Source: Methanomassiliicoccaceae archaeon
GTDB taxonomy: Archaea > Thermoplasmatota > Thermoplasmata > Methanomassiliicoccales > Methanomassiliicoccaceae
Reading direction: 5' to 3'
NCBI GenBank assembly: GCA_963728405.1
Contig: CAVSJV010000011.1
Coordinates: 1-10,913, forward strand
DNA length: 10,913 nt
Positions 1-10,913 of this stretch are shown here, in pieces. Under the pieces are notes generated by a model. That model was given only the letters and a program-made list of their open reading frames with translations, was not told the DNA's origin and did no database searches. The translations under genes and the position numbers were made by a program. Each line of letters begins with the position of its first letter. Position 1 is the first letter of the stretch.

Positions 1-100
1 CTACTATCATCTGGCTCATCCTAATTTTCCCAATTCCATTTGTAAACGCCTTTACCGGCTGAAGAGCGGGAATTCTTCCTTGACTTCATAGGCTCCGCTT

Positions 101-271
101 TCATCTTCTCAACAACAGCTGATCAAGGTACTTGATGACACCCGTTCGCATGATGTCCGATCGGCCGAGCCTGGTCCACCTCGACATCTTTATCAGCTCT
201 TTATGGAGTGGTACGGGCAGGTAGACGGACGCGTGGACTGTGGTCTTCTTGTTGGTCGTATTCGTAGGCAT
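101..271 (-). CDS. Ribbon-helix-helix (CopG/Arc/MetJ-like) DNA-binding protein, 56 aa as read
   Basis: Manual translation (not in ORF track): MPTNTTNKKTTVHASVYLPVPLHKELIKMSRWTRLGRSDIMRTGVIKYLDQLLLRR. Alternating beta strand (VHASVYLP), helix A, then G-R-S-D-I-M-R-x-G-V helix B match the RHH pattern. A frameshift near 120 would extend the C-terminus (AVVEKMKAEPMKSRKN...WNWEN*). Confidence 0.75.
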   Translation of the reverse strand: MPTNTTNKKTTVHASVYLPVPLHKELIKMSRWTRLGRSDIMRTGVIKYLDQLLLRR

Positions 272-477
272 GTTAACACATATGTACGAGGTAGCATTAT
301 AGAGATGTCCAGATAGTTATTTTCATCTTAAATTAATCTATTATATTCCTATGGAATCGGAGGCAGTTTCCTATCAGCAAACCGACCAAACTAACTGTCG
401 TAATTTGGCGCATGAGTCTCAATGACGCTCCGTCGCGAGCGACTCCAGGCCGCAGCGTTCAGTCCGGTAAGCGCATG

Positions 478-514
478 TGGGATGTCGTCCGAGACGGCAG
501 CCCATTTTCTTTCT
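478..514 (+). terminator. Stem-loop followed by T-rich tract, terminator-like
   Basis: TGGG-A-TGTCGTC-CGA-GACGGCA-G-CCCA (11 pairs including one G-U) followed by TTTTCTTTCT. Confidence 0.5.
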
Positions 515-570
515 AGAACGGACCCCTCCCTTCCAGAAGTAGGACCCTGCTTGTGCCGGTTGCCGATCAT

Positions 571-983
571 CTAGCAGTTGCAGGACCGCGGCCCTAGCAT
601 TATTTCCTTCAGCTTCTCGGTCGTCCGCTCCATCTCCTCGGCCGTCATCGGCTTGATGGGGTAGCAGACCATGTCGTTCTTCCTGGCCTTCTCCTTGTCC
701 AGATTAGAGTCGGAGCCGGTCAGAACGATCACTGGAGTGGTCTTGCTTATTCCCCTGTTCTTTTAAGAATTCCAGGACCTCGTGACCACTGACTCGGGGC
801 AGATTGAGGTCAATGATGATAAGACCGGCCTGCCCAACATCGTCGAAGAACTTGATCGCTTTCTCCCCCATTATCGAGCCAAATCAGCTCATGCACGATC
901 CCAGTATCTTTGATCAGCTCTCTGATAATGTCCGCATCAGGCCGATTGTCCTCAATGAGCAGGATCCGGTGGCCTTCGTTCAT
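571..983 (-). CDS. Single-domain response regulator (CheY-like receiver, Rcp1-type), two apparent 1-nt frameshifts
   Basis: Reconstructed MNEGHRILLIEDNRPDADIIRELIKDTGIVHELIWLDNGEKAIKFFDDVGQAGLIIIDLNLPRVSGHEVLEFLKEQGISKTTPVIVLTGSDSNLDKEKARKNDMVCYPIKPMT... It has the ED acidic pair, phosphoacceptor DLNLP, LT and KP motifs. Shifts fall in C-runs at 865-869 and 752-755. The ATG (983) directly abuts the kinase TAG (984-986). Confidence 0.92.
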
Positions 984-2901
984 CTACCTCGCCCTCTCGC
1001 CTGTCTTAGGTACGGTGAAAAAGAAGGTCGTACCCTTGCCGACCTCCGACTCGATCCAGATGCGACCGCCGTGCCGCTCCACGATCTTCTTGCTTATGGC
1101 CAGCCCGATACCGGTGCCAGGATATTCATTTTGAGTATGCAGTCTCTGGAACATCTGGAACAGCTTGTTGTGATACTTCGGATCGATGCCGATGCCGTTG
1201 TCCTTGACCGAGATGGTCCACTCTTGATCGCGCTCTTGAGAAGTGATCTCTACTCTCGGCGGCTCTGGCCCGTGGAACTTGATGGCGTTGCTGATGAGGT
1301 TCTGGAGCACCTGAGATAATTGCGTCGCATCCCCGAAAACGGTCGGCAGGGGGCCGACGATCGACCACTGCCCTGCTCTCCCCGATCACCACATGCAGGT
1401 TGTCGATCGCTCTCTCCGCTACCTGCTCCAGATCAACGGCCGAGAACTCTTCGCCCTGCATATGGATGCGCGAGTATTGCAGCAGATCGTTGATGAGCTC
1501 CCTCATGCGTGCGGCACCGGCGTTCGCCGCTGGCCGTGTACCCCTTGGCCTGGTCGTTGAGCTCATCGCCATACTTCTTGTTGAGCAGACCCAGATAGCT
1601 CATGATCATTCGGAGCGGCTCTTGAAGATCGTGACTGGCTACATAAGCGAACTGCTGCAGCTCGGCGTTGGAGCGCTCGAAGACTGGTGAAGTCACGGTC
1701 TGCTCCACCTCTTCGGTTATTTCGGTGTTGGTGCCGAACCAGCGAGCGACCTTGCCGCTCTCGTCCTTCACCGGCAGTACCCGCGTCAGGAAGGGACGGA
1801 ACACTCCGTCGGCGCCCCGCAGCGGGAACACCATGTCGAACGGTTGGCCGGTGGCTATCGAGCCCTTCCATTGATCGAGGACCTTCGGCGGTACATCGGG
1901 GTTGTGCACCGACTGCCAGCCCCAGGGGCCCATCTGCTCTGGGGTGGTGCCGGTGTAATCGTACCACTGCCTGTTATACCAGAAGATCGAGCCGTTCGCG
2001 TCAGCCATCCACGCTAACTGAGGGATGTTGTTCGGCGAGCATTGCAGGAGCGCTCCTCGCTCTCCTTGAGCGCTTCCTCCGCTCGTTTGCGGTCGGTGAT
2101 GTCCACGAGAGAGGAGAGCATTATCTCCTCCCCCTTGAATTCAATGACCTGAGCCAAATCAACGTGGTCCAGATTTTGGCCGTTCTTCTTACAAACACTA
2201 AGTTGTAGTTCCCCATGTTGTTAATGGAGCCTTTCTGTTTTAGCTCATTAACAACATTTTGGCGATCCTTCTGGGTTGGCCATAAGTTCAGTTCGGTGGT
2301 CGTTCGACCTGGATCGCTCATCCCTTGCCATACTCCAACATTTTGAGGCCTTGGTCATTCGCGTGAATGATCTTGCCGTCGCTCAAACGCGTGATGTAGG
2401 TCGAAGCTGAGGAACCGTGGAAAGCGCCTGGAAAACTTTTCCTCACTTTCCTTTAGCACTTCCTCCACCCGCTTGCGTTCGGTAACGTTTTCTTGGATCA
2501 TCACCAGCAAGTCCGGCCTCCCTGTGCCGTTCTCGATGGGGATAGCAGACCAGTTGACCCAGAACTCGATCCCGTCCTCGTTTTTGGCTCGGAACTCTCT
2601 GATCTCCAACTTCTCCTTGGTCTCGGAGACCCGGCGGAGAATTCGTAAGACGGGGCTCTTCTCACCGCCTGTGACGAAGTCTACCAACTTCACACCGACG
2701 AGGTTTGGTTCTTGAACCTCCCGGGAAGAAAGTGGCAAGAATCGTCGCTGATGTACTCTACTTCGAACTCGTCCAGGAGAGGTAGAAAACAGCGCCTGGT
2801 AGCCCGTTGATGATGCTCCCGAACAGCACCACATTTCGTCCGCTCCCTTTGGCCCAGTCATGGTCCCCGGCCATCGCTGCTTCGTGCATATGGGCAACCA
2901 T
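984..2901 (-). CDS. Cytoplasmic multi-PAS sensor histidine kinase (3 PAS/PAC + HisKA + HATPase_c, Cph1-like transmitter), multiple apparent frameshifts
   Basis: ORF-track pieces 2355-2897, 2121-2321, 1433-2008, 1126-1572 and 984-1310 concatenate. PAC linkers [19 protein letters not shown] and [31 protein letters not shown]...[11 protein letters not shown]-box [15 protein letters not shown]-box [11 protein letters not shown]1 DNGIGI, G2 GTGIGLAI. Probable start ATG at 2901 ([10 protein letters not shown]...). Confidence 0.93.
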
Positions 2902-3257
2902 CCTAGATGTAAACGTTAATTAACTCCACCCACGAGGAAAATACGAAGGGCTTGTTGATTATTATATTGTATCCTACTCACTTTCGGCACTCCCCCCCCC
3001 TTAAGCCACTTACCCTTGTTGCCCCTATCTCAAGCTCATGCCAAGTCCACCCCACCGAGAGTATTCTCGAAGAAGACGGTCCCATTTACATACTACGGCC
3101 ATGAACAGAAAGTAAGGTTTGCCTTCAATCGAATTATGGTCGAGGGAAGATGTGAGAGCCGTAGGCAGGGAATGCGCGTTAATTCCCAACGATTGCCGAT
3201 GGGCGCTCCCAAGTAGGTCCTAATCTGCGGATGAATTGGAAATGAACGGGACCACCT

Positions 3258-3438
3258 TCAGGTGACTGTCCAGGTGGTGCCATCCGTGTTATGGTCACTG
3301 TTCCATTGAGGTCGGTGCGGTAGATGGTCACACTATGGGCGTTCAGAAGAGACGGGATAGCGTATCGGAAGTCGGATGGCCATAGCTGTTTCCAGCCCTA
3401 ACCCCTATAACAGCGAGATTTGGCGAGGTCGATAGGAG
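3258..3438 (-). pseudogene. C-terminal remnant of a ComEC/Rec2-type metallo-beta-lactamase-fold hydrolase
   Basis: Manual translation across two shifts: LLSTSPNLAVIGVRAGNSYGHPTSDTLSRL / LNAHSVTIYRTDLNGTVTIT / DGTTWTVT*. This matches the NxYGHP...YRTDxxGxxxxxTDG signature. No HHGS or HxHxDH motif seen upstream. Confidence 0.75.
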
Positions 3439-3604
3439 TTGCCTAGCTACACTGGATTTGGGCGACGCCTGGTTACTCCAAGGCGGCGGTATAGGTGGAA
3501 TCATAGTCCGAGAAACTTACCGCGGGGTTCATCTTTTGTGGCTATGATGTCCGCCATGGTCGCGTGGAATCAGATCGTTCTAGCAACCGGGATGCAGATA
3601 ACCA

Positions 3605-3787
3605 ATGAAAGAGGAAAGAGCCCCCGACCCGATGAGGGTCAATACGCCGCTCAAGCACTATCGTGTGAAAAAAGGTTTGTGCTTGTCATGCGGCCGCGAG
3701 GAGTGCGATAGTCGTTCGCCCCTGGTCTGCCAATGTACCATCTACGAGGACCTGGCCATCCGAGCTCCGAGGCGGTCAATTCAGTAG
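3605..3787 (+). CDS. Small Cys-rich hypothetical protein (possible zinc-binding)
   Basis: 60 aa ORF with CLSC-x4-C-x7-CQC. No recognised family and no clear promoter. Confidence 0.4.
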   Translation: MKEERAPDPMRVNTPLKHYRVKKGLCLSCGREECDSRSPLVCQCTIYEDLAIRAPRRSIQ

Positions 3788-4080
3788 GAGACCTAACTAT
3801 GTGGTCAAAAAGGAAGGGGGGACAATTACTTGACGCCTTATGGGGGAGATGGTGTCGTCCATTGAGGGAAAGGCCCTCATTGATGGCAAATCTTAAGGAT
3901 TTTTATACCTTTCCGGCAAATATGACGGCTCGATCAAAAGGGTATGGCTTTTACCCTCTCCCATTTTTCTATCCAGATGAGTAACCTAGAACTGGAATTT
4001 TTGAGGGAGGGGGAAGGACCTCCTTATTCTACAAATAATTTATCTTTGGGTTGTTGGAACACCATTACGAGGAGCGCTTA

Positions 4081-5199
4081 ATGGGATCCAACCGGCTCGT
4101 TGAGCTCGACATCTTGAAGGCGATGGCGATCCTGGCGATTGTGGTCGCCCGTGTGCTAGAAGATGGTACCGGCCTTTGCCAGTGTGAGCTGGTTGTTGAC
4201 GTTGAGCGTTTGGACCGGCGTCACCGGCCTAAGCATATTCTTCTTCACCTCTGGGTACTCCTTGATGCTCAAGAAGCCCACTTTCGACCGCCCTCGCGAC
4301 ATCCTTGATTTTCCTCCGGAAGCGTTTTGTGAGAATATACCCGCTCTATTGGGTGGCGCTGATCGTCGCCACAATCGTCATAGCTCCCCGGGCAGTCGGT
4401 GAAGTCCTCTCGCTCTGACCAACCTCACAGCCCTGCAGCAGCTCTCAGGGTAAGCGGCCTGCAGATCCTATTCTACCCTAAGCTGGTACCCTACCTTGGT
4501 ATTCTATGGTTCGTCAGCATTCCTGTGATTTTCTACCTCTTCTTTCCCGTACTGATCTACTTGGCCGATGCGGCTATTTTCAGGTTTCACCAGGTCCCTC
4601 TTCCTCGTCGCCTTGGCCATCTTCGCAGTCCTGGTCGTTGTCTCTTTCATCACCGGTGCCGTGGGACTGGGCCAGGTGTACATTTACTACTGGATCTTCA
4701 TCGCCGGGATTCTCCTCGGAAGGGGGGCGAATCTCGGAGATAAAGAGTCCTCAGGTCCTAAAAGTCTGCCTGGCTTCCGGGGTGGGCTTTCCCTCATATA
4801 TGCCTCAGGCGGGGGCATGCTCGGGCTGGTATGTAAGTTAATCCCGCCCTCCCTTGATTCCAACCATCCACATCGCCCTAATCGGCGTGATCGGTGTCTC
4901 CGTTCTCCATCTTCTTCGTCAACTTGTACGAAAAGATATGCTACCGGCTTAATCGCCAGGGTGGTTAAAAGAGTCGGCCCGTCAACCTATTCGATATACC
5001 TCTTCCACATCTACTTCCTCACGCTGTTCGCGGTCCTGGGGGCGAGCGTGAGCCCCGGGGCTGCGCCGATCTTGGTGGTTGCCCTAGGGATCCCCTGTGC
5101 GATTATCGTTCCTGCTGCTACATCCAAGCCTTGGTCGACCGTACCATGAAATTATATGCTAACAAAGAAGCACCGAGGGGCTCAGACCCCCATGCTTAA
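4081..5199 (+). CDS. Acyltransferase family 3 (OafA/YrhL-like) integral membrane O-acyltransferase, multiple apparent frameshifts
   Basis: N-terminal RLVELDILKAMAILAIVVA, FFFTSGYSL, LWFVSIPVIFYLFFP and TYSIYLFH motifs spread over successive frames, with many hydrophobic segments. GAGGAG at 4069-4074 precedes ATG 4081. The last frame ends ...PRGSDPHA* at 5199. Confidence 0.88.
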
Positions 5200-5383
5200 G
5201 CACGGCCTTGATCTATAAGCTAACTTGATCGCAATCCCCGAGCCAGATGATTGGTGATTGGAACTGAAAGTTACCGATCGCGACTTGGGCCTAGTTGAGG
5301 CAAAGAAAGGAAGTGGTTTAGGACTATTTTTCATAGCCTCGAACAAGCGCTCTGTACACGAGGACGGTACAATTGAGGGGTCA

Positions 5384-5424
5384 GCCAGACAGTTTGGCGG
5401 TTTAAAATCCCGCTCGGCCCATCA
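5384..5424 (+). repeat. Site S1: copy of the palindromic att-like motif (outer right TGGC missing)
   Basis: GCCAGACAGTTTGGCGGTTTAAAATCCCGCTCGGCCCATCA; 29/41 columns identical to S3 by hand alignment. Confidence 0.65.
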
Positions 5425-5447
5425 ATTCATTACAATGATCCCATCTT

Positions 5448-5552
5448 GTGTCCCAACGGCTTGCCAAATAGAGGTTGTGGAGGAAGTATTTCGATAGCCA
5501 GTAATAAGTCCAGCCCAACCGCCCGACTTCTACGAGAATATACATCATGGCA
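5448..5552 (-). pseudogene. Possible highly decayed tyrosine-recombinase box II fragment
   Basis: One frame reads CHDVYSRRS...FGKPLGHK, resembling HxxRR...LGH with imperfect spacing. Same strand and relative position as the two clearer fragments. Confidence 0.3.
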
Positions 5553-5700
5553 GTTCTTGGAACTAGGCACCGTTAAGGGGGCTTCGTTTTCACTGGTCGA
5601 TGGTAAGAACTGCAGAGGACCATCCGCAGCTCCACCGGAGCATCGTGAATGCTAACGCCCTCCAATACGGTCACAGAATTTTTGAAATTTTCGAGGGTTG

Positions 5701-5753
5701 GCCAGATAATAATAATGAGTTCAAATCTCTTCGGGCTCACTAATTCTTCTGGC
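5701..5753 (+). repeat. Site S2: palindromic att-like motif containing a tRNA 3'-end-like core
   Basis: GCCAGA...TGAGTTC-AAATCTCTTC-GGGCTCA...TCTGGC. Bases 5717-5742 (GAG-TTCAAAT-CTC-TT-CGGGCTC-A-CTA) have the layout of T-loop, T-stem, acceptor strand and discriminator. No 5' tRNA half is present. Confidence 0.65.
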
Positions 5754-5754
5754 T

Positions 5755-6000
5755 TCACTCGTTTTCCCCAATAGTGTTGGGAAACGCCCTTACATTGCGA
5801 ACAACATCGGCATTATGTTTTTCCTGGAAGGCCTGAGGGTTCGCCCTCATCTTCATTCTTATCAGGTCCAGATAGTCGTCCTTCTTCTCCTGGACCTTGG
5901 CGTAATCAAGGGTAAATCCTAGATAGATCATGGTCGTCCTGGTATCGGCATGACCCAGCATGGTGGATACCTCGGTTATTGACGATCCATTCAGGGTCGT
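5755..6000 (-). pseudogene. Tyrosine recombinase/integrase C-terminal fragment
   Basis: NGSSITEVSTMLGHADTRTTMIYLG is the box II LGH...TTxxY motif with the catalytic Tyr. The upstream HxxR and R motifs are absent. The fragment begins at S3 and ends next to S2. Confidence 0.85.
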
Positions 6001-6007
6001 CAATTTG

Positions 6008-6057
6008 GCCAGACGATTTCGTGGGCAGAAATCCGCTCTGTCCACCATCATCCTGGC
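6008..6057 (+). repeat. Site S3: palindromic att-like motif
   Basis: GCCAGACGAT-TTC-GTGGGCAGA-AATCCGC-TCTGTCCAC-C-ATCATCCTGGC, with nested inverted arms around a 7 bp spacer. Confidence 0.7.
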
Positions 6058-6270
6058 TCAATATGTTAGTTTCCGTTTACGGAAAATAGATGCTGGCCTA
6101 ATATAAACCAAGCCGCCCCATCGCGTCGTCATATTGTCCACGTCCAAGCCCAGATGGCTAATGGCCATCTTAGTGTCGAAGTGCCCGAAGATTGGGGTAT
6201 TGTCAACGAACTGGTAGCCGGGCCCGATGTGGGCCGCCTGAACACAACCCCCCGCCAGGACCGCTTGCAC
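6058..6270 (-). pseudogene. Second, more decayed tyrosine recombinase C-terminal fragment
   Basis: IFGHFDTKMAISHLGLDVDNM aligns with MLGHADTRTTMIYLGFTLDY of the neighbouring fragment (Tyr replaced by His). With frameshifts the reading runs on into S3 (SQDDGGQSG). Confidence 0.65.
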
Positions 6271-6304
6271 TTGCTAGTACCTCTATGTCAGTTCCGGAGA
6301 CGCG

Positions 6305-6357
6305 CCCCCTGCTTGTGGTGGAAAGGGGGGAATTAGGCAATCCCCGGGAACAGTGGC
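6305..6357 (-). repeat. Site S4: inverted, diverged copy of the motif
   Basis: Minus strand GCCACTGTTCCCGGGGATTGCCT-AATTCCCCCCTTTCCACCA. Bases 6316-6334 match S3 6029-6047 at 15/19, with GCCA at near-equivalent spacing. Confidence 0.45.
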
Positions 6358-6372
6358 ATTATGAAAAACCAT

Positions 6373-7286
6373 CTAAACTGAAAATAGCTTGGTGCTTAGG
6401 TATTTCTCTCCCCGGTCAGGTAAAATAGTTATAATAACGCGGACTCTATCTGCTTGGCTATCTCGATGGCAGCATACATTGCGGCACCGCTGCTCATACC
6501 AACGAAGATCCTTTCCTGTTTAACGATCTGACGGGTCATCTCATAGGCTATTTCCGTCTCGACCATGATGGTGGCGTCGATCTGGGTGGGGTCATATATC
6601 GCCGGGACAATGGCTTCTTCCATGTTCTTTAATCCCTGGATATAGTGCCCTTTAACAGGATGAGCGCTGACTATCTTTATTTGCGGATTATGTTCCTTTA
6701 ACGCTTTACCTACGCCCATTATCGTGCCAGAAGTGCCTAACGCCGACACAAAATAGTCTACTTTGCCTCCAGTTTGCTTCCAGATCTCATCCCCGGTCGT
6801 CTTATAATGCGCAAGCTGGTTATACTGGTTGGAAAACTGGTCCGGCATGAAGTACTTTTGAGGATTTGCCTTGACCAATTCCCGTGCTTTTCTAATGGCG
6901 CCGTCGGTGCCGTATTTCCCCTCGCTTAAGGTGACGATTCCGCCGAACGCTTTGATCATCTGCCGTCTCTCTACCGAGACGGACTCACTCATAACGATCT
7001 CTACTTCATACCCTTTGATCGCACCGATCATCGCTAAAGCCACCCCGGTATTCCCCGACGTTGGTTCGATGATAGTTTTACCTTTGGTCAGCGTGCCCTC
7101 ATCTTCAGCCTGCTGGATCATGCTCAAGGCAATCCGGTCTTTGATACTGCCAGTAGGATTGAATCCCTCTACTTTGGCATATATCGTCGTGTTCTTGTTC
7201 GGATTAAGCTTGTTTATCCTGACCAAGGGGGTATTGCCGATCGTCTGGAGGATGTTTTCTTTGAAATCGGCCGATGGCGTTTTCAT
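6373..7286 (-). CDS. cysM: Cysteine synthase family PLP enzyme (CysM-like), one apparent frameshift near 6440
   Basis: IGNTPLVRI, NPTGSIKDRIA (PLP Lys), EPTSGNTG, GTSGT, GMSSGAA. A shifted frame supplies the conserved end VIITILPDRGEKYLSTKLFSV* (TAG 6373-6375). The IQGLKNMEEAIVPAIYDP loop looks more CysM-like than CysK-like; that sub-call is less certain. Confidence 0.9.
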
Positions 7287-7317
7287 GTTATGTTCCCCCT
7301 GTGAAAGGGGAGAGCAT

Positions 7318-7332
7318 TTATAATAAATATAT
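7318..7332 (-). promoter_or_regulatory. Archaeal TATA box of the cysteine synthase gene
   Basis: Minus strand TATATTTATTATAA, 32-46 nt upstream of ATG 7286. Confidence 0.55.
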
Positions 7333-7522
7333 CACAGCTAAGAAATATCAGCGACTAGTGCGGTTGTTGGGTGAGGTTAAAAAGTGACGATAGTTACACC
7401 AAACTGGAAGCCCGGCTAAATCTCGACACCCGATAACCCAGACCAATTACATAATCATAGTTGGAAGGGTTTGATTGTTTTGTTCGTCCCTCGCAAGATT
7501 TTTGGATTCCCGGAAATATTTT

Positions 7523-7582
7523 GGTGCCATCCAAGCGGTTTAGTTGACACAAATCCTGCTCTGTTCACCTAACAATGGCACC
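7523..7582 (+). repeat. Site S5: palindromic att-like motif
   Basis: GGTGCCAT...TTAGTTGACACA-AATCCTGC-TCTGTTCACCTAA...ATGGCACC. Perfect 8 bp outer inverted repeat; 7531-7569 matches S3 6009-6046 at 30/39 columns. Confidence 0.7.
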
Positions 7583-7620
7583 TGATTTCATCTCCCGAAC
7601 ATTTCGATAAATTTTGCAGA

Positions 7621-7639
7621 ACACCCCTTCGGTGGGTGC
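7621..7639. terminator. Small GC hairpin directly after the stop of the minus-strand membrane ORF
   Basis: ACACCC-CTTCGGT-GGGTGC; no clear T-tract. Confidence 0.3.
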
Positions 7640-7978
7640 CTAGCATTCCAAAATAGAACATAATATCGTACATGCATTATATATCCCTCTATGTGATCCG
7701 ATGTCATGGTAAAGATGTGGAATGGTAAGAAATTCCACTTCTGCCGAAGAACTCTTTACAAAGAGGCCTGCGAGGCCGATAAAGAAGAGAACAATAGTGA
7801 CGACAAGCGAAATAATCGGAAAGGCATCGTTACTCGGCATGGCGAGCTGGAGAAAAGCCGATAGGAAAACGATAATGGCCTAGGCAATGTATACCGGCGA
7901 TATGACTAGAAACGAGATCGACGAATCGCCATTGGATGAAATATGGTCCTGCTGAAAGAAATACAAATTCGACACCAT
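7640..7978 (-). CDS. Small hypothetical membrane protein with an in-frame TAG (7880-7882); possibly a pseudogene
   Basis: MVSNLYFFQQDHISSNGDSSISFLVISPVYIA*AIIVFLSAFLQLAMPSNDAFPIISLVVTIVLFFIGLAGLFV... Hydrophobic helices continue on both sides of the TAG. Confidence 0.4.
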
Positions 7979-8080
7979 CCATCTGATTCTAAAGGCCTCC
8001 TTGGTCAAAATATCAGCGATTTACTATATCGATTGTTTTTGGATCGTCGAGCGTGGCCAGCCCTTCTTTTCCGTAGGTTG

Positions 8081-8779
8081 TCATCCCCCCAGGTAGAGTG
8101 TTGTCAAAGTAATGGCCGTACCAATTACAAGAAAACCAATTCCGGGCCCTAATCTCCTAATGCCAGCACAGCCACCCCACTCTACCCCAATGACGAACAT
8201 CATTACCAGAGCGATCAGGTTCGAGATGTTCAATGCCAGGATCGGCTCGCTCGGAAAAACAATAAATGGGATGATGACCGGAAACAGCGTAAGAAAGACA
8301 GTAACTAATATCCAAGACGACCGATCAGATCGTCGCCGAAGTCCTTGAAGAAAGCCTTTCTATCAATGAATTGAGGGCACGGCATCAGCCACAATAGCGA
8401 CGATGCGTTCTCGATCGCTTGAGTTCATAGTATGAATGATCGTATTGTCGAGGTCGTCCACGATGGCCTCTTTCGCTTTCGCATTATCTCGGTCTTCATT
8501 TAGGGCCTTGGAGATCGTCGCATATCTATTTCGAGTAAAATAGCTGCCAATGACATACATCACCCCATCGACGATACCCCAAGCGATGTTGACCCCGATC
8601 ACAGCCAATAATAGATTTACTACAGAGAACCCATTTTGGGAGATACTTATTCTGAGTGTCCCAGTGACCCCTAAGACCAGAATGAGGCCAAGTACCACCT
8701 CGGGCAATCTATCGACCGGATCGAGATACTTTTCGATTGCATTCTATCCAGTCAGTAGACTGAACATCAGATTGGGCAT
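8081..8779 (-). CDS. VIT1/CCC1-like membrane protein, with apparent frameshifts and an in-frame TAG at codon 12
   Basis: YLDPVDRLPEVVLGLILVLGVTG...IGVNIAWGIVDGVMYV, a soluble loop, then VFLTLFPVIIPFIVF...LNISNLIALVMMFVIGVEWG...TLYLGG* (TGA 8081-8083). The topology is typical of VIT-family proteins. Confidence 0.75.
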
Positions 8780-8796
8780 ATGTTTCTTATCGAAGG

Positions 8797-8803
8797 TATA
8801 TAA
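8797..8803 (-). promoter_or_regulatory. Archaeal TATA box giving a near-leaderless transcript
   Basis: TTATATA begins 24 nt upstream of ATG 8779. Confidence 0.6.
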
Positions 8804-8847
8804 TCCATAGCTCGGTTTGCTTTAGGAAAATGGCACGCTTGAAAGTG

Positions 8848-8880
8848 TAAATAAAAGGAAAGTGACCGGAGGCTCCGGCC
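8848..8880 (-). terminator. Hairpin plus pyrimidine/T tract after the PRC-barrel gene
   Basis: GGCCGGA-GCC-TCCGGTC followed by ACTTTCCTTTTATTT, directly after the TGA at 8883. Confidence 0.6.
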
Positions 8881-8882
8881 GT

Positions 8883-9198
8883 TCAGGTTCCTTTTGGATT
8901 GTGTACCTTGACAGCGCCCTTAATGGAGGCAAAGTTGGAGTTCAGCTGCATTACTGTCGGGTGCGATGGTCCTTCACAAAGGAAGCGGGGATGTTCACCA
9001 TTGCGGCGCCGAACATCGGTTTCTTGATGTTCAGCTCCTCCGAGATGTCCTTGTGCACTTCTATGACGAAAGAGAAACTGTCCAACCCTTCGGGCTTACG
9101 ATGATCCCATCCAGAGTCCCCAGCAACTTTCCATCGTCAGTATAAACTTCCTTCGCCCCTGTGGCCTTCCAGTATGTCGGTTCCATGGTTTGGGTCAT
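8883..9198 (-). CDS. PRC-barrel domain protein, apparent frameshifts
   Basis: Manual reconstruction (not in ORF track): MTQTMEPTYWKATGAKEVYTDDGKLLGTLDGIIVSPKGWTV / FVIEVHKDISEELNIKKPMFGAAMVNIPASFVK / VMQLNSNFASIKGAVKVHNPKGT*. KEVYTxDGKxLG, WxV and IP..V are PRC-barrel features. Confidence 0.8.
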
Positions 9199-9320
9199 TG
9201 TCGTTTCAGATTTCTGTATGATACACATGGTGGATGATGCTTGGGACGGGTCAGTCTATAACACTTTCATCACCGTTCTTCAATGACTATGGGGAGGCCG
9301 CCGTCCATTTAACGGGCATG

Positions 9321-9329
9321 TATTAAAAA
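9321..9329 (+). promoter_or_regulatory. TATA-like box upstream of the DUF1269/DUF6325-like gene
   Basis: TATTAAAAA begins 23 nt before the in-frame ATG at 9344. Confidence 0.45.
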
Positions 9330-9475
9330 CCAGACACTTCAACATGGCACTGGTCTTCGGAAATAACCTAAATGACGAGAACATCATAAATCGGACGTGG
9401 AGCGGTCTGTCCGATTCATTGATAGCTCCCGTCGGAGGTCTATTCGGTGGATCATCAAGCATGGGAGAACTAGAT

Positions 9476-10003
9476 ATGGTAATGTATGGACCAATGCAGT
9501 TGATAGCGGTTGGATTTCCCGGGAATGAGTTCTCTGGCGAGGTTCTGCCGGCCATTAGAGATGTGAAGGAGAAGGGCCTCATTCGCGTGATCGACTATGC
9601 CTTCGTTATAAAGGACGCGGACGGAAACATGCTCGCGGTCGAAGCTACTGATTTTTGACCCGGAGAGGTCGAAGAACTGGGAGCCGCCGTCGGTGCCCTC
9701 ATAGGTCTCGGAGCCGGTGGAGCAGAAGGGGCGAGAAGGGGAGCCGAAGCCGGTGCGGAAAGGGCCAGGGAGATGGAAATGGCGAACGATAGGACCTACG
9801 GCCTCTCGCAAGATGATATTGACGAGATCGTTGATTCGTTCCCCAACAACACTTCCGCCCTCTTCGCCATCATCGAACACCTGTGGGCCAAAGACCTCAA
9901 GCAAGCGGTAATGGATTCCAACGGGATCGTCGTCCAGGGTATGCTGAGACCGGAGCTCTTCATGCGCATCGGTGAGGCGTTACCAGCTTTGGCCAGCAGG
10001 TAA
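9476..10003 (+). CDS. DUF1269/DUF6325-like protein, apparent frameshift(s) near 9652-9667; alternative in-frame start at 9344
   Basis: GPMQLIAVGFPGNEFSGEVLPAIRDVKEKGLIRVIDYAFVIKDADG, Gly/Ala-rich GAAVGALIGLGAGGAEGA, then DIDEIVDSFPNNTSALFAIIEHLWA. GGGAG at 9463-9467 precedes ATG 9476. Confidence 0.8.
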
Positions 10004-10458
10004 AGCTCGTGCCCAAGCCATAACTCACCAAACCACTTACCCTCCAATTTTATTTGACTTACGAAGGAGCAGGGGGATTTGTTCCGCCCTTGAGTTGGGG
10101 TCTGGGCCTTGGCCGTTGCCTACGGGAGTCCGGTTTCTAATCCACATACTCATGCCCTCGCTCCACTTACTTTGGGGCCATGTAAAGATTAACAAGACTT
10201 GGAGCGCTTAGATGGATCTATCTAAATGATCACTCCTCCCCCTGCCAATGGTCGGACCCACGGCTTATCATTCTTTCTGATCCCACTGCCGTCACTGGTC
10301 TTTTTTCACATTCTTGACCGTGACCGTAACCAGGAGACGTTGATTTTGTCTAGTCTTTCGATGATCTCTTTCATTTCTTTTTCCAGTTCCTGCCCTCCCT
10401 GTTTCAATGCAGGTGAGTTAGAGGCACTTTCTTTACTAGCTCCAGTAGGGACCTCTTT

Positions 10459-10910
10459 TTAACTCTTTTCGATCGGTCTGTATAGGACTTTTTGGACGAT
10501 GTAACTTACAAGCCTTGGCCCTGGTCATGCCCGGCTGCTTCAGAAGTTCCAAAACTTTGCAAGATCAACTTCCACATTTGGTCTTCCTGGAAAGTGTCCA
10601 TCCTTTGCTCACTATGCCCGCTCTTTTTTCGTTCGCTCAACCATGATCTGACCCTCGAACTCCACCACGGACGCCAGGATGTTTCCCATCAATCGCCCTG
10701 TTGAGGTGGAGTAGTCCAGGCCATCACATGATGACTCCAATCGGATGCCCTTGATCGAAGCCAATAATCGTAGATAGCCAAGAGATAGTGCGAAAGGCAA
10801 CCTTTGCATGTCTAAAAATATATTTTCGATGGGGCCGTTCAGTTATTTCACACATCCATATGTTTCAGGATTGCTGGAAAGGCGGGGCAAATACGGCCGA
10901 TCTTTACCAT
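10459..10910 (-). pseudogene. Decayed serine recombinase (resolvase/invertase family)
   Basis: GIRLESSCDGLDYSTSTGRLMGNILASVVEFEGQIMVERTK, then in-frame TAG TGA, PGRPNV and an HTH-like tail ending VLYR. Removing two homopolymer bases at the 5' end gives MVKIAVFARLSS (YARVS-like). The central DRxxR region is missing. Confidence 0.85.
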
Positions 10911-10913
10911 TAT

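Follow-up and report, generated by a model that had tools for sequence, protein, structure and literature searches.

The best-described relatives of the locus studied here are genomic islands that integrate into tRNA genes. As described in the Islander paper (Hudson, Lau & Williams 2015, PMC4383910), the ends of such islands are marked by an intact tRNA gene (tDNA) and a displaced 3′ fragment of it in the same orientation; the islands carry a tyrosine integrase, with the T-loop or the T-stem/acceptor junction ('J') as the crossover subsite. The table in that paper holds 125 tandem arrays with at least two islands and 4 with at least three. In the account of archaeal integrated elements given in PMC8371274, tRNA genes are the main targets, a 7-bp overlap is flanked by a palindromic stem, one locus can take up several elements in tandem, and integration may be followed by loss of the integrase gene; the same source gives two 11-nt inverted repeats and a 6-nt spacer for XerA/dif. 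The report on phage Ms6 (PMC1762012) describes a 26-nt tRNA-Ala core from the T-arm to the 3′ end, states that a switch between tRNA-Ala isoacceptors needs small core changes only, and suggests strand exchange in the T-loop. In this study, we analyzed a 10,913-nucleotide stretch of DNA (the window) from a Methanomassiliicoccaceae archaeon, for which an initial annotation had described five diverged copies of one motif (S1 to S5) between positions 5241 and 7582 as a candidate archaeal cassette or integration system. We found that the five motifs are likely attachment (att) site remnants of tRNA-targeting tyrosine integrases, which appear to have been stacked by repeated integration, deletion and rearrangement.

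tRNA origin of the five sites

Reading the sequence bore out the positions of all five motif copies and the inverted orientation of S4, and the spacers are as had been described (AAAATCCCGC in S1, AATCCGC in S3 and AATCCTGC in S5). What had been missed is the origin of the sites: the right half of every one of them is the 3′ end of a tRNA gene. S1 to S5 each align, in the sense orientation, to a tRNA gene of their own genome assembly (G000), over its 3′ part from the T-loop to the acceptor end, and the local alignments with the best tRNA per site span tRNA positions 47-56 through 73-76. We compared the alignment scores with those of 300 dinucleotide shuffles per site, which reached the observed score in 0, 0, 2, 0 and 1 cases for S1 to S5; hence, the similarity is beyond chance. 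ARAGORN called no tRNA gene in the window and Rfam gave no match there at E ≤ 1, and the sites are therefore fragments of tRNA genes. In these alignments, the common 'spacer' AATCC(Y)GC is the T-loop end and T-stem 3′ strand of tRNA-Ala, and the 'right arm' is the 3′ strand of the acceptor stem. The sites are as follows.

5302..5436, + strand: S1, attR/attP-type junction consisting of a conserved element-side extension of about 80 nt (5302-5383) and a core (5384-5436); best tRNA tRNA-Ala(CGC), positions 49-73, 0/300 shuffles
5701..5753, + strand: S2, displaced tRNA-Ile(GAT) 3′ fragment with a GCCAGA element-side motif; best tRNA tRNA-Ile(GAT), positions 53-76, 0/300 shuffles
6008..6057, + strand: S3, attP-type core for tRNA-Ala(CGC) with the parts GCCAGAC, GGGCAGA, AATCCGC, TCTGTCC and ACCA; best tRNA tRNA-Ala(CGC), positions 48-74, 2/300 shuffles
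6305..6357, - strand: S4, degenerate and inverted, copying tRNA-Ala(GGC) over the T-arm and the acceptor 3′ strand; best tRNA for the reverse complement tRNA-Ala(GGC), positions 47-74, 0/300 shuffles
7462..7582, + strand: S5, core (7527-7582) corresponding to the tRNA-Ala(CGC) 3′ end, with the left arm interrupted; best tRNA tRNA-Ala(CGC), positions 56-74, 1/300 shuffles

All five sites contain the block of identity that in Islander islands runs from the T-loop or the T-stem/acceptor junction to the tRNA 3′ end. The extension of S1 belongs to a conserved noncoding element of about 125 nt, which we named S1fam and which consists of an A-rich stretch, a 7-bp hairpin, the GCCAG motif and a tRNA-Ala 3′ end (nhmmer alignment 5302-5433, E 4e-38). 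The extension of S5 (about 7462-7526) resembles a degenerate S1fam by eye only, the S1fam profile not reaching E 0.01 there.

S2 could be placed relative to a tRNA gene with the help of a second copy of the locus. The window is the entire 10.9-kb contig C11 of the 2.73-Mb, 18-contig assembly (completeness 93.75%), and a collinear twin of window positions 1-10913 lies in opposite orientation at C13:116071-126932; it is 97% identical, with 129 gap positions, and differs at the S sites by two substitutions only. In this twin, the equivalent of window position 1 is the final base of a tRNA-Ile(GAT) gene, c[126932,127007]. S2 matches tRNA-Ile(GAT) at 20/20 nt in the window and at 24/24 nt in the C13 copy (121255-121278), where the intact tRNA-Ile lies 5.65 kb upstream on the same strand, so that S2 and its C13 counterpart have the position and orientation of a displaced tDNA 3′ fragment. 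The similarity continues beyond the fragment: window positions 5717-5793 align at 79% identity (E 6e-7) to C13:126955-126878, which comprises the tRNA-Ile 3′ end and the equivalent of the following feature.

1..54, - strand: 3′ flank and final codons of an integrase that is otherwise almost entirely deleted, immediately following the tRNA-Ile gene located ahead of the window sequence in the C13 copy

The left arm of S3, GGGCAGA, is identical to positions 1-7 of tRNA-Ala(CGC), and sister copies of S3 are found at C13:154134, C13:166563 and C4:274443. The site has an encoded CCA, in contrast to the genomic tRNA-Ala gene. We also observed that the S3 hairpin (6021-6052) is an exact tRNA-Ala(CGC) acceptor microhelix, with G3:U70, a 7-nt loop, the 3′ strand and the discriminator A.

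Integrase remnants beside the sites

The sites had been said to be interleaved with integrase tails. We searched the window with a profile of the C-terminal 125 amino acids of ten integrases from this and related genomes. It matched at 5758-6057 (- strand, E 1.6e-13) and 6061-6273 (- strand, E 0.0074), which upholds the claim for these two tails but not for any tail left of S2 or S5; degenerate tails considered left of S2 (5573-5758, - strand) and left of S5 found no support in the profile search and were dropped.

5755..6051, - strand: tail2, tyrosine integrase C-terminal remnant, tRNA-Ile-linked family (profile E 1.6e-13)
6061..6273, - strand: tail3, short integrase C-terminal remnant, tRNA-Ala-linked family (profile E 0.0074)

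The best match of tail2 is a family of 331-residue tyrosine recombinases (E about 1e-27), and it is 67-69% identical to residues 259-322 of the members P0002 and P0004; with Pfam PF00589 it reaches only E 0.023. About 75 of 331 amino acids remain, including GH...Y, and everything through HxxR is lost. About 15 nt separate the stop codon of tail2 from the end of S2, and the stop codon of tail3 abuts S3. The best BLASTP matches of tail3 are integrase tails beside tRNA-Ala(CGC) (E 9e-7) and tRNA-Ala(GGC) (E 8e-6), followed by the Ile family at 1e-3. The 331-residue family is present in 67 of the 151 genomes of the order that we sampled (E ≤ 1e-20), and one database relative is labelled Methanomassiliicoccales. 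Among 13 fetched loci of this family, a tRNA-Ile(GAT) gene converges on the integrase 3′ end in 7 and a tRNA-Val in 1, and for 5 of the 13 the fetched stretch contained no tRNA. These matches indicate that S2 and S3 are each adjoined by the 3′ end of an integrase of the type that targets the same tRNA. The expectation that the sites would coincide with integrase 3′ ends and island borders is borne out by tail2 and S2, by tail3 and S3, by the 7 of 13 relative loci and by the island in a congeneric genome described below. A single Xer/Int-like family, as had been proposed, does not account for the two tails: their matches point to at least two integrase families with two tRNA specificities.

No intact integrase is present in the window, as had been noted: PF00589 gave only a match of E 0.16 at 5920-5991, the profile found the two stubs, and full-length P0002 matched at 5818-6015 only (query residues 257-323). 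The locus therefore has C-terminal stubs only, where an Islander island has an intact integrase and both att sites. In the whole assembly, a full-length query of the 331-residue family gave 4 matches, all partial. Intact integrases of other subfamilies are encoded at C13:1920-3077 (386 amino acids) and C18:19024-20214 (397 amino acids), and a 403-residue integrase query gave no confirmed relative in the genome contigs.

S3 alone overlaps an integrase open reading frame (ORF), and the T-arm and acceptor of the tRNA, read antisense, encode RAGF, which resembles a conserved integrase motif. An explanation to consider was therefore that the motif is fortuitous or merely reflects the coding of a conserved peptide of the integrase. 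It is refuted: shuffled sequences reached the scores in 0-2 of 300 cases, 4 of the 5 sites lie outside integrase-like ORFs, 17 more copies lie outside integrase genes, and copies occur in other genera. Nor is the variation between copies confined to synonymous positions of an integrase peptide, as the integrase profile match starts downstream of S3 and the homology to a longer integrase copy in contig C12 ends 20 nt short of the site. We regard this as the least probable of all the explanations considered.

An apparently intact island in a congeneric genome

The near-complete genome of a congeneric archaeon (G009) contains an apparently intact island of 19.5 kb at a tRNA-Ile gene (L050:46-123). 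An intact integrase of 336 amino acids (L050:244-1251, - strand; PF00589 E 1.9e-11) is followed by about 19 kb of cargo, and the far border (L050:19609-19652) is a 44-nt repeat with 91% identity that extends from tRNA position 60 to 25 nt past the gene. Left of this repeat, the border reads GGGGGTAGCCAG, 9 nt, ATGGGCCC and T, which is the GCCAG motif plus an arm copying the 5′ acceptor strand of tRNA-Ile. The attR site thus has 7-nt arms that are inverted with the acceptor 3′ strand around about 8 nt. By sequence comparison, S3 has the same site design as this border, adapted to tRNA-Ala(CGC). A pattern search found the Ile-type acceptor-mimic site in 4 of the 151 genomes, with 0 hits for the reversed pattern as control; the GCCAG/TCCAG motif was at the expected distance in 2 of the 4 Ile-type sites, and the site in G096 was odd.

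A separate observation concerns this last genome. At locus L057 (G096:C13:269608-269735), a piece of tRNA-Ile from the D-stem through the anticodon arm is followed by 8 nt and then by GGGCCC-AAATCTCTTTGGGCCCA. It resembles a tRNA-Ile in which a duplicate of the gene's 5′ acceptor strand has taken the place of the variable loop and the T-stem 5′ strand, and the locus received no tRNA call from ARAGORN.

The intact island also bears on whether tail2 and S3 form the Int(C)-attR border of an SSV-type 'suicidal' integration, in which the att site lies within the integrase gene. Such a partition of the gene is known in archaea, as PMC7253208 and PMC8371274 describe, the tail2 ORF has S3 in frame at its 5′ end, and the antisense translation of S3, VDRADF, stands at the place of the RRAG[LI] motif of the relatives. 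However, full-length relatives of 331 amino acids have ordinary sequence there and no tRNA-like segment, and at 7 of 13 loci as well as in G009 the tRNA is located past the stop codon and thus outside the gene. Homology of tail2 to a longer integrase copy in contig C12 stops 20 nt before S3, the full-length query revealed no N-terminal fragment (Int(N)) in the window, and the sister of S3 in C4 is flanked by non-integrase sequence. This explanation is largely refuted, and we consider it highly improbable. We also rejected the idea that S3 arose by integration into a pseudo-site within an older integrase: from the spacer, element-type sequence reaches some 35 nt further to the left, and the C12 homology ends at 5988.

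Related sites elsewhere in the genome

When the genome was searched with a profile built from S1 to S5, which is hence circular for those five, 26 matches reached E ≤ 0.03. Of these, 4 fall in the window and 4 are the C13 counterparts of those 4; 1 is a true tRNA-Ala gene, and 17 lie at other places. S4 reached only E 1.3, and S5 had E 2.3e-9, a value subject to the same circularity. Unlike real tRNA genes, the sites match from the first profile positions, including the GCCAG part. Altogether, G000 has 37 places outside tRNA genes with similarity to part of a tRNA at E ≤ 0.05, of which 22 are 3′-half fragments that end no more than 4 nt from the tRNA 3′ end. Clusters of S-type sites together with PAS histidine-kinase genes are found at C18:19-40 kb and at C13:150-167 kb, the second cluster lying downstream of tRNA-Ala(CGC) with a spacing of 3-5 kb.

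S1fam occurs in 7 of 31 related genomes, namely G000, G002, G003, G005, G011, G013 and G023. Its copies in G000 are listed here.

S1fam in G000: C12:5862, C18:20336, C18:30791, C6:45149, C4:268497, C7:141204, C7:139722, C18:22104 and C13:166486

An integrase stop codon abuts the tRNA-like end of S1fam at C18:19024-20214 (397 amino acids) and L006:287-1495 (403 amino acids), and other copies have the last integrase codons only. At C7:130426-142700, an island downstream of tRNA-Ala(GGC) has a frameshifted integrase, about 9 kb of cargo and S1fam sites at 139722, 141204 and 142619. These sites enclose a 277-residue ORF and a frameshifted cysK (141555-142579) that is 95% identical to window positions 6364-7383. 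The S sites that flank cysK in C7 are unrelated to those that flank it in the window, where the gene is the sole intact ORF within 5241-7582.

6429..7286, - strand: cysK, cargo gene, pyridoxal phosphate-dependent, cysteine-synthase-like (Pfam PALP E 1.3e-69)

The occurrence of cysK at two S-flanked loci with 95% identity raises the question of whether the S junctions are still active, with integrases acting in trans and moving the modules between same-orientation sites (cysK, the 277-residue ORF and small membrane proteins). We consider this unlikely. It is equally doubtful that excised circles are reinserted at tRNA genes or other S sites, which would make the array a tRNA-anchored archaeal counterpart of integron or CIME-like arrays (CIMEs being cis-mobilisable elements), and we give little weight to the view that each junction is a complete attP-like unit of a ~100-nt arm, a core resembling an acceptor microhelix and an integrase-proximal flank. 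If these proposals were true, both halves of the acceptor stem of a tRNA would serve the integrase as core arms. Short modules between same-orientation sites (318, 308 and 1520 bp in the window, 1518 and 1355 bp in C7, and 467 and 1292 bp in G003), the retention of the ~100-nt arm, core and last integrase codons by every S1fam junction, and the intact integrases of other subfamilies in the genome (386 and 397 amino acids) would all fit continued activity. On the other hand, the 95% identical cysK block stops short of the flanking S sites, which are unrelated between the two loci, and cysK has therefore not moved recently as an S-bounded unit. The S1-S2 and S2-S3 intervals have no cargo gene, the cores are degenerate and of mixed tRNA types, the full-length query found only the 4 partial matches to the tail2 family in the assembly, and the comparison with C12 gave no empty site bounded at S cores. 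Because no intact cognate integrase was found in the assembly, the array is probably a fossil.

Inverted arms and outer frame

The sites had been interpreted as recombination sites of the tyrosine-recombinase type, with inverted arms around a spacer. Our sequence comparisons support attachment sites of this kind, and inverted arms around 7-8 nt are clear in S3 and in the attR site of G009. The arms change with the target, from GGGCCC/GGGCCC in the Ile type to GGGCAGA/TCTGTCC in the Ala type. The palindromic character ascribed to all five copies is seen in two of them: RNA-fold z scores were -3.51 for S2 and -3.84 for S3, against -0.11 for S1, +1.17 for S4 and +0.37 for S5. S3 forms a 9-bp stem around 7 nt, the stem of S2 has two G:T pairs around 10 nt, the arms of S5 are interrupted, and S1 and S4 have none. 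Similarly, the outer GCCA...TGGC frame can be read in S2 and S3; in S5 its register is shifted, and S1 and S4 do not have it on the right. We had considered covariation of the outer GCCAGA/TCTGGC repeat in S5 (GTGCCAT/ATGGCAC) and rejected it, the left member being 5-6 nt out of register.

To 11 sites that we picked ourselves (S1, S2, S3, S5, six other G000 copies and the G009 border) we assigned nine arm pairs; these were formed in 79.8% of cells, as opposed to 30-42% with the partner slid by 1-3 columns, and three of the pairs change on both sides. We also analyzed 18 S1fam sites that were not selected for arms; they represent 18 of 20 full-length hits, from which a near-duplicate of S1 and one core-less copy had been dropped. 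Neither RNAalifold nor a second alifold run returned a consensus structure for these 18 copies, and we therefore counted pairs on a structure that we named ourselves, in which the arm helix was paired in 61.9% of cells. The separate S1fam hairpin, TTGTACC...GGTACAA, was 86.8% paired, with compensatory changes in two pairs.

A strong hairpin such as that of S3 (-21.5 kcal/mol, z -3.84) could also point to an RNA: S3-type hairpins might be expressed as tRNA-like microhelices with a function of their own. The left arm of S3 copies tRNA-Ala positions 1-7, including the G that gives a G:U wobble, and is not a perfect complement, and ACCA follows the site while the genomic tRNA-Ala lacks an encoded CCA. 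Yet a DNA palindrome should fold on either strand, and the minus strand does so just as well (-21.6 kcal/mol); moreover, the same design is found at a real island border near an integrase, where a role as core site suffices. Rfam has no match at E ≤ 1, and the sister copies differ in the loop and do not have the CCA. An RNA function therefore seems very improbable to us, and we return to att-site remnants as the explanation of the five motifs.

A proposed history of the locus

The tRNA origin of the sites, the cognate integrase remnants and the design of the intact island can be seen in the sequences; an order of events and the positions of integrase binding and cleavage we infer on the basis of the mechanism established for such islands. 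The attP site of a circular island would have a right half that copies the 3′ end of the target tRNA, from the T-loop end through the acceptor 3′ strand plus about 25 nt, and a left half of element DNA, which contains the GCCAG motif and in several copies also an arm that duplicates the 5′ acceptor strand of the tRNA. Because of this arm, the integrase would bind the two acceptor halves as inverted arms, with an overlap of about 8 nt between them. Recombination by strand exchange at the tRNA gene would restore the tRNA, place the integrase gene convergent to its 3′ end and displace the old tRNA 3′ fragment to the far island border. Repeated integration, together with internal deletions and rearrangements, would then stack such fragments, each neighbouring the 3′ end of the next island's integrase. 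In this scheme, S2 would be the tRNA-Ile fragment displaced by the island occupying window positions 1-5700, and tail2 the leftover integrase of the next, older tRNA-Ile-type island. S3 and tail3 would form the attP-type junction of a tRNA-Ala-type island, S1 and S5 would be right-end junctions of tRNA-Ala-type elements with the conserved ~100-nt arm, and S4 would be an inverted scrap.

Contig C12 offers a further comparison. C12:8982-12384 corresponds to window positions 2978-9492, with 94% identity over window 2978-5765 followed directly by the homologue of window 8839-9492; it thus does not have window positions 5766-8838 (3.07 kb), which contain tail2, S3, tail3, S4, cysK and S5. We considered C12 as the 'empty site' of a 3.07-kb insertion at S2, a reading that is ambiguous because the right junction has no convincing S site.

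Several observations weigh against this account of att-site remnants. The Ala-type sites (S1, S3, S4 and S5) stand in a tRNA-Ile-anchored island, which is not expected from simple tandem integration. The homology of tail2 to the longer C12 integrase copy ends at 5988, 20 nt before S3 and about 35 nt left of its spacer, and S3 therefore did not arise there by a crossover at its own core. The left edge of the 3.07-kb difference falls in the flank of S2, its right edge has no recognisable S site, and the presence-absence difference between C12 and the window may be a plain deletion. Folding is significant compared with shuffles in 2 of the 5 sites only, and the set of 11 sites used for the arm pairs is biased, having been chosen partly for an arm-like look. 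Finally, the window has more frameshifts than the C13 twin, so that the assembly or a strain variant may be responsible for some of the apparent decay. The Ala-type sites, the join between tail2 and S3 and the C12 edge are most simply explained by deletions and rearrangements between islands. Relaxed-specificity recombination by an archaeal integrase is on record in another lineage, as reported in PMC5495485.

The remainder of the window contains the following features.

101-271, - strand: small ribbon-helix-helix gene (E 0.0014)
984-2897, - strand: PAS histidine kinase, split into at least three frames
4051-5149, + strand: broken acyltransferase-3 gene
10612-10809, - strand: serine-resolvase fragment (E 5e-6)

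In the C13 twin, several ORFs are longer than in the window, including the histidine kinase (380 amino acids), the acyltransferase (298 amino acids) and frames of 247 and 238 amino acids. An assembly rich in indels may account for the extra frameshifts of the window contig, which could alternatively be a strain variant or a decayed duplicate. The host genome encodes MCR alpha and hence belongs to a methanogenic archaeon.

Overall, the tRNA-Ile locus of this methanogen appears to have been a repeated landing pad for integrative islands, which would explain its puzzling repeats and broken genes. For the uncharacterised archaeal family of 331-residue integrases, the analysis yields a model of the att site at the level of sequence, in which the element-side arm copies the 5′ acceptor strand of the tRNA and the site resembles an acceptor microhelix; this model could guide the mapping of island borders in genomes of the order. 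S1fam, with its ~125 nt, marks the right ends of islands in several genera, which makes it a possible handle for searches.

Comparison with known systems

The locus shares with integron attC/attI arrays imperfectly palindromic sites of tyrosine recombinases and short, gene-sized intervals. Unlike integrons, it has no IntI-type integrase beside an attI in the window, its sites are derived from tRNA genes, and 2 of the 4 intervals are integrase stubs without cargo. Integron attC sites have the boxes R''/L''-L'/R', with the consensus RYYYAAC ... GTTRRRY. Read against this consensus, none of S1 to S5 has GTTRRRY at its right end, because the right halves correspond to tRNA acceptor strands. The dif site of XerA-type systems is generally present once per chromosome; in contrast, the S profile matches 17 further places beyond the window sites and their C13 twins, and the right halves of the S sites are tRNA-derived.

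Among tRNA-targeting systems, Ms6 is a phage of an unrelated, bacterial host, and the part of its description available to us (PMC1762012) does not mention an element arm that copies the 5′ acceptor strand. SSV-type integrases, as presented in PMC7253208 and PMC8371274, are likewise archaeal and tRNA-targeting and leave integrase fragments beside att sites, but the att site of the 331-residue family lies after the stop codon and not within the gene. The characterised archaeal systems covered in PMC8371274 (SSV1/SSV2, pTN3, pT26-2 and SNJ2) belong to other lineages, and the 331-residue family is uncharacterised.

Islander islands come closest. The filters described in PMC4383910 need an integrase and both att sites intact and would not call the remnants found here, which differ from Islander islands by their C-terminal integrase stubs, the two tRNA identities at one locus and intervals down to about 310 bp. 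They share with the islands of that paper a tDNA 3′ fragment at the end, a tyrosine-type integrase, a crossover at the T-loop or acceptor junction and tandem arrays. The integron-like system that had been proposed is not needed, since an intact tRNA gene, a displaced 3′ fragment and tandem arrays are standard for tRNA-targeted islands; the locus is a familiar genomic scar with this anatomy and does not call for a new cassette system.

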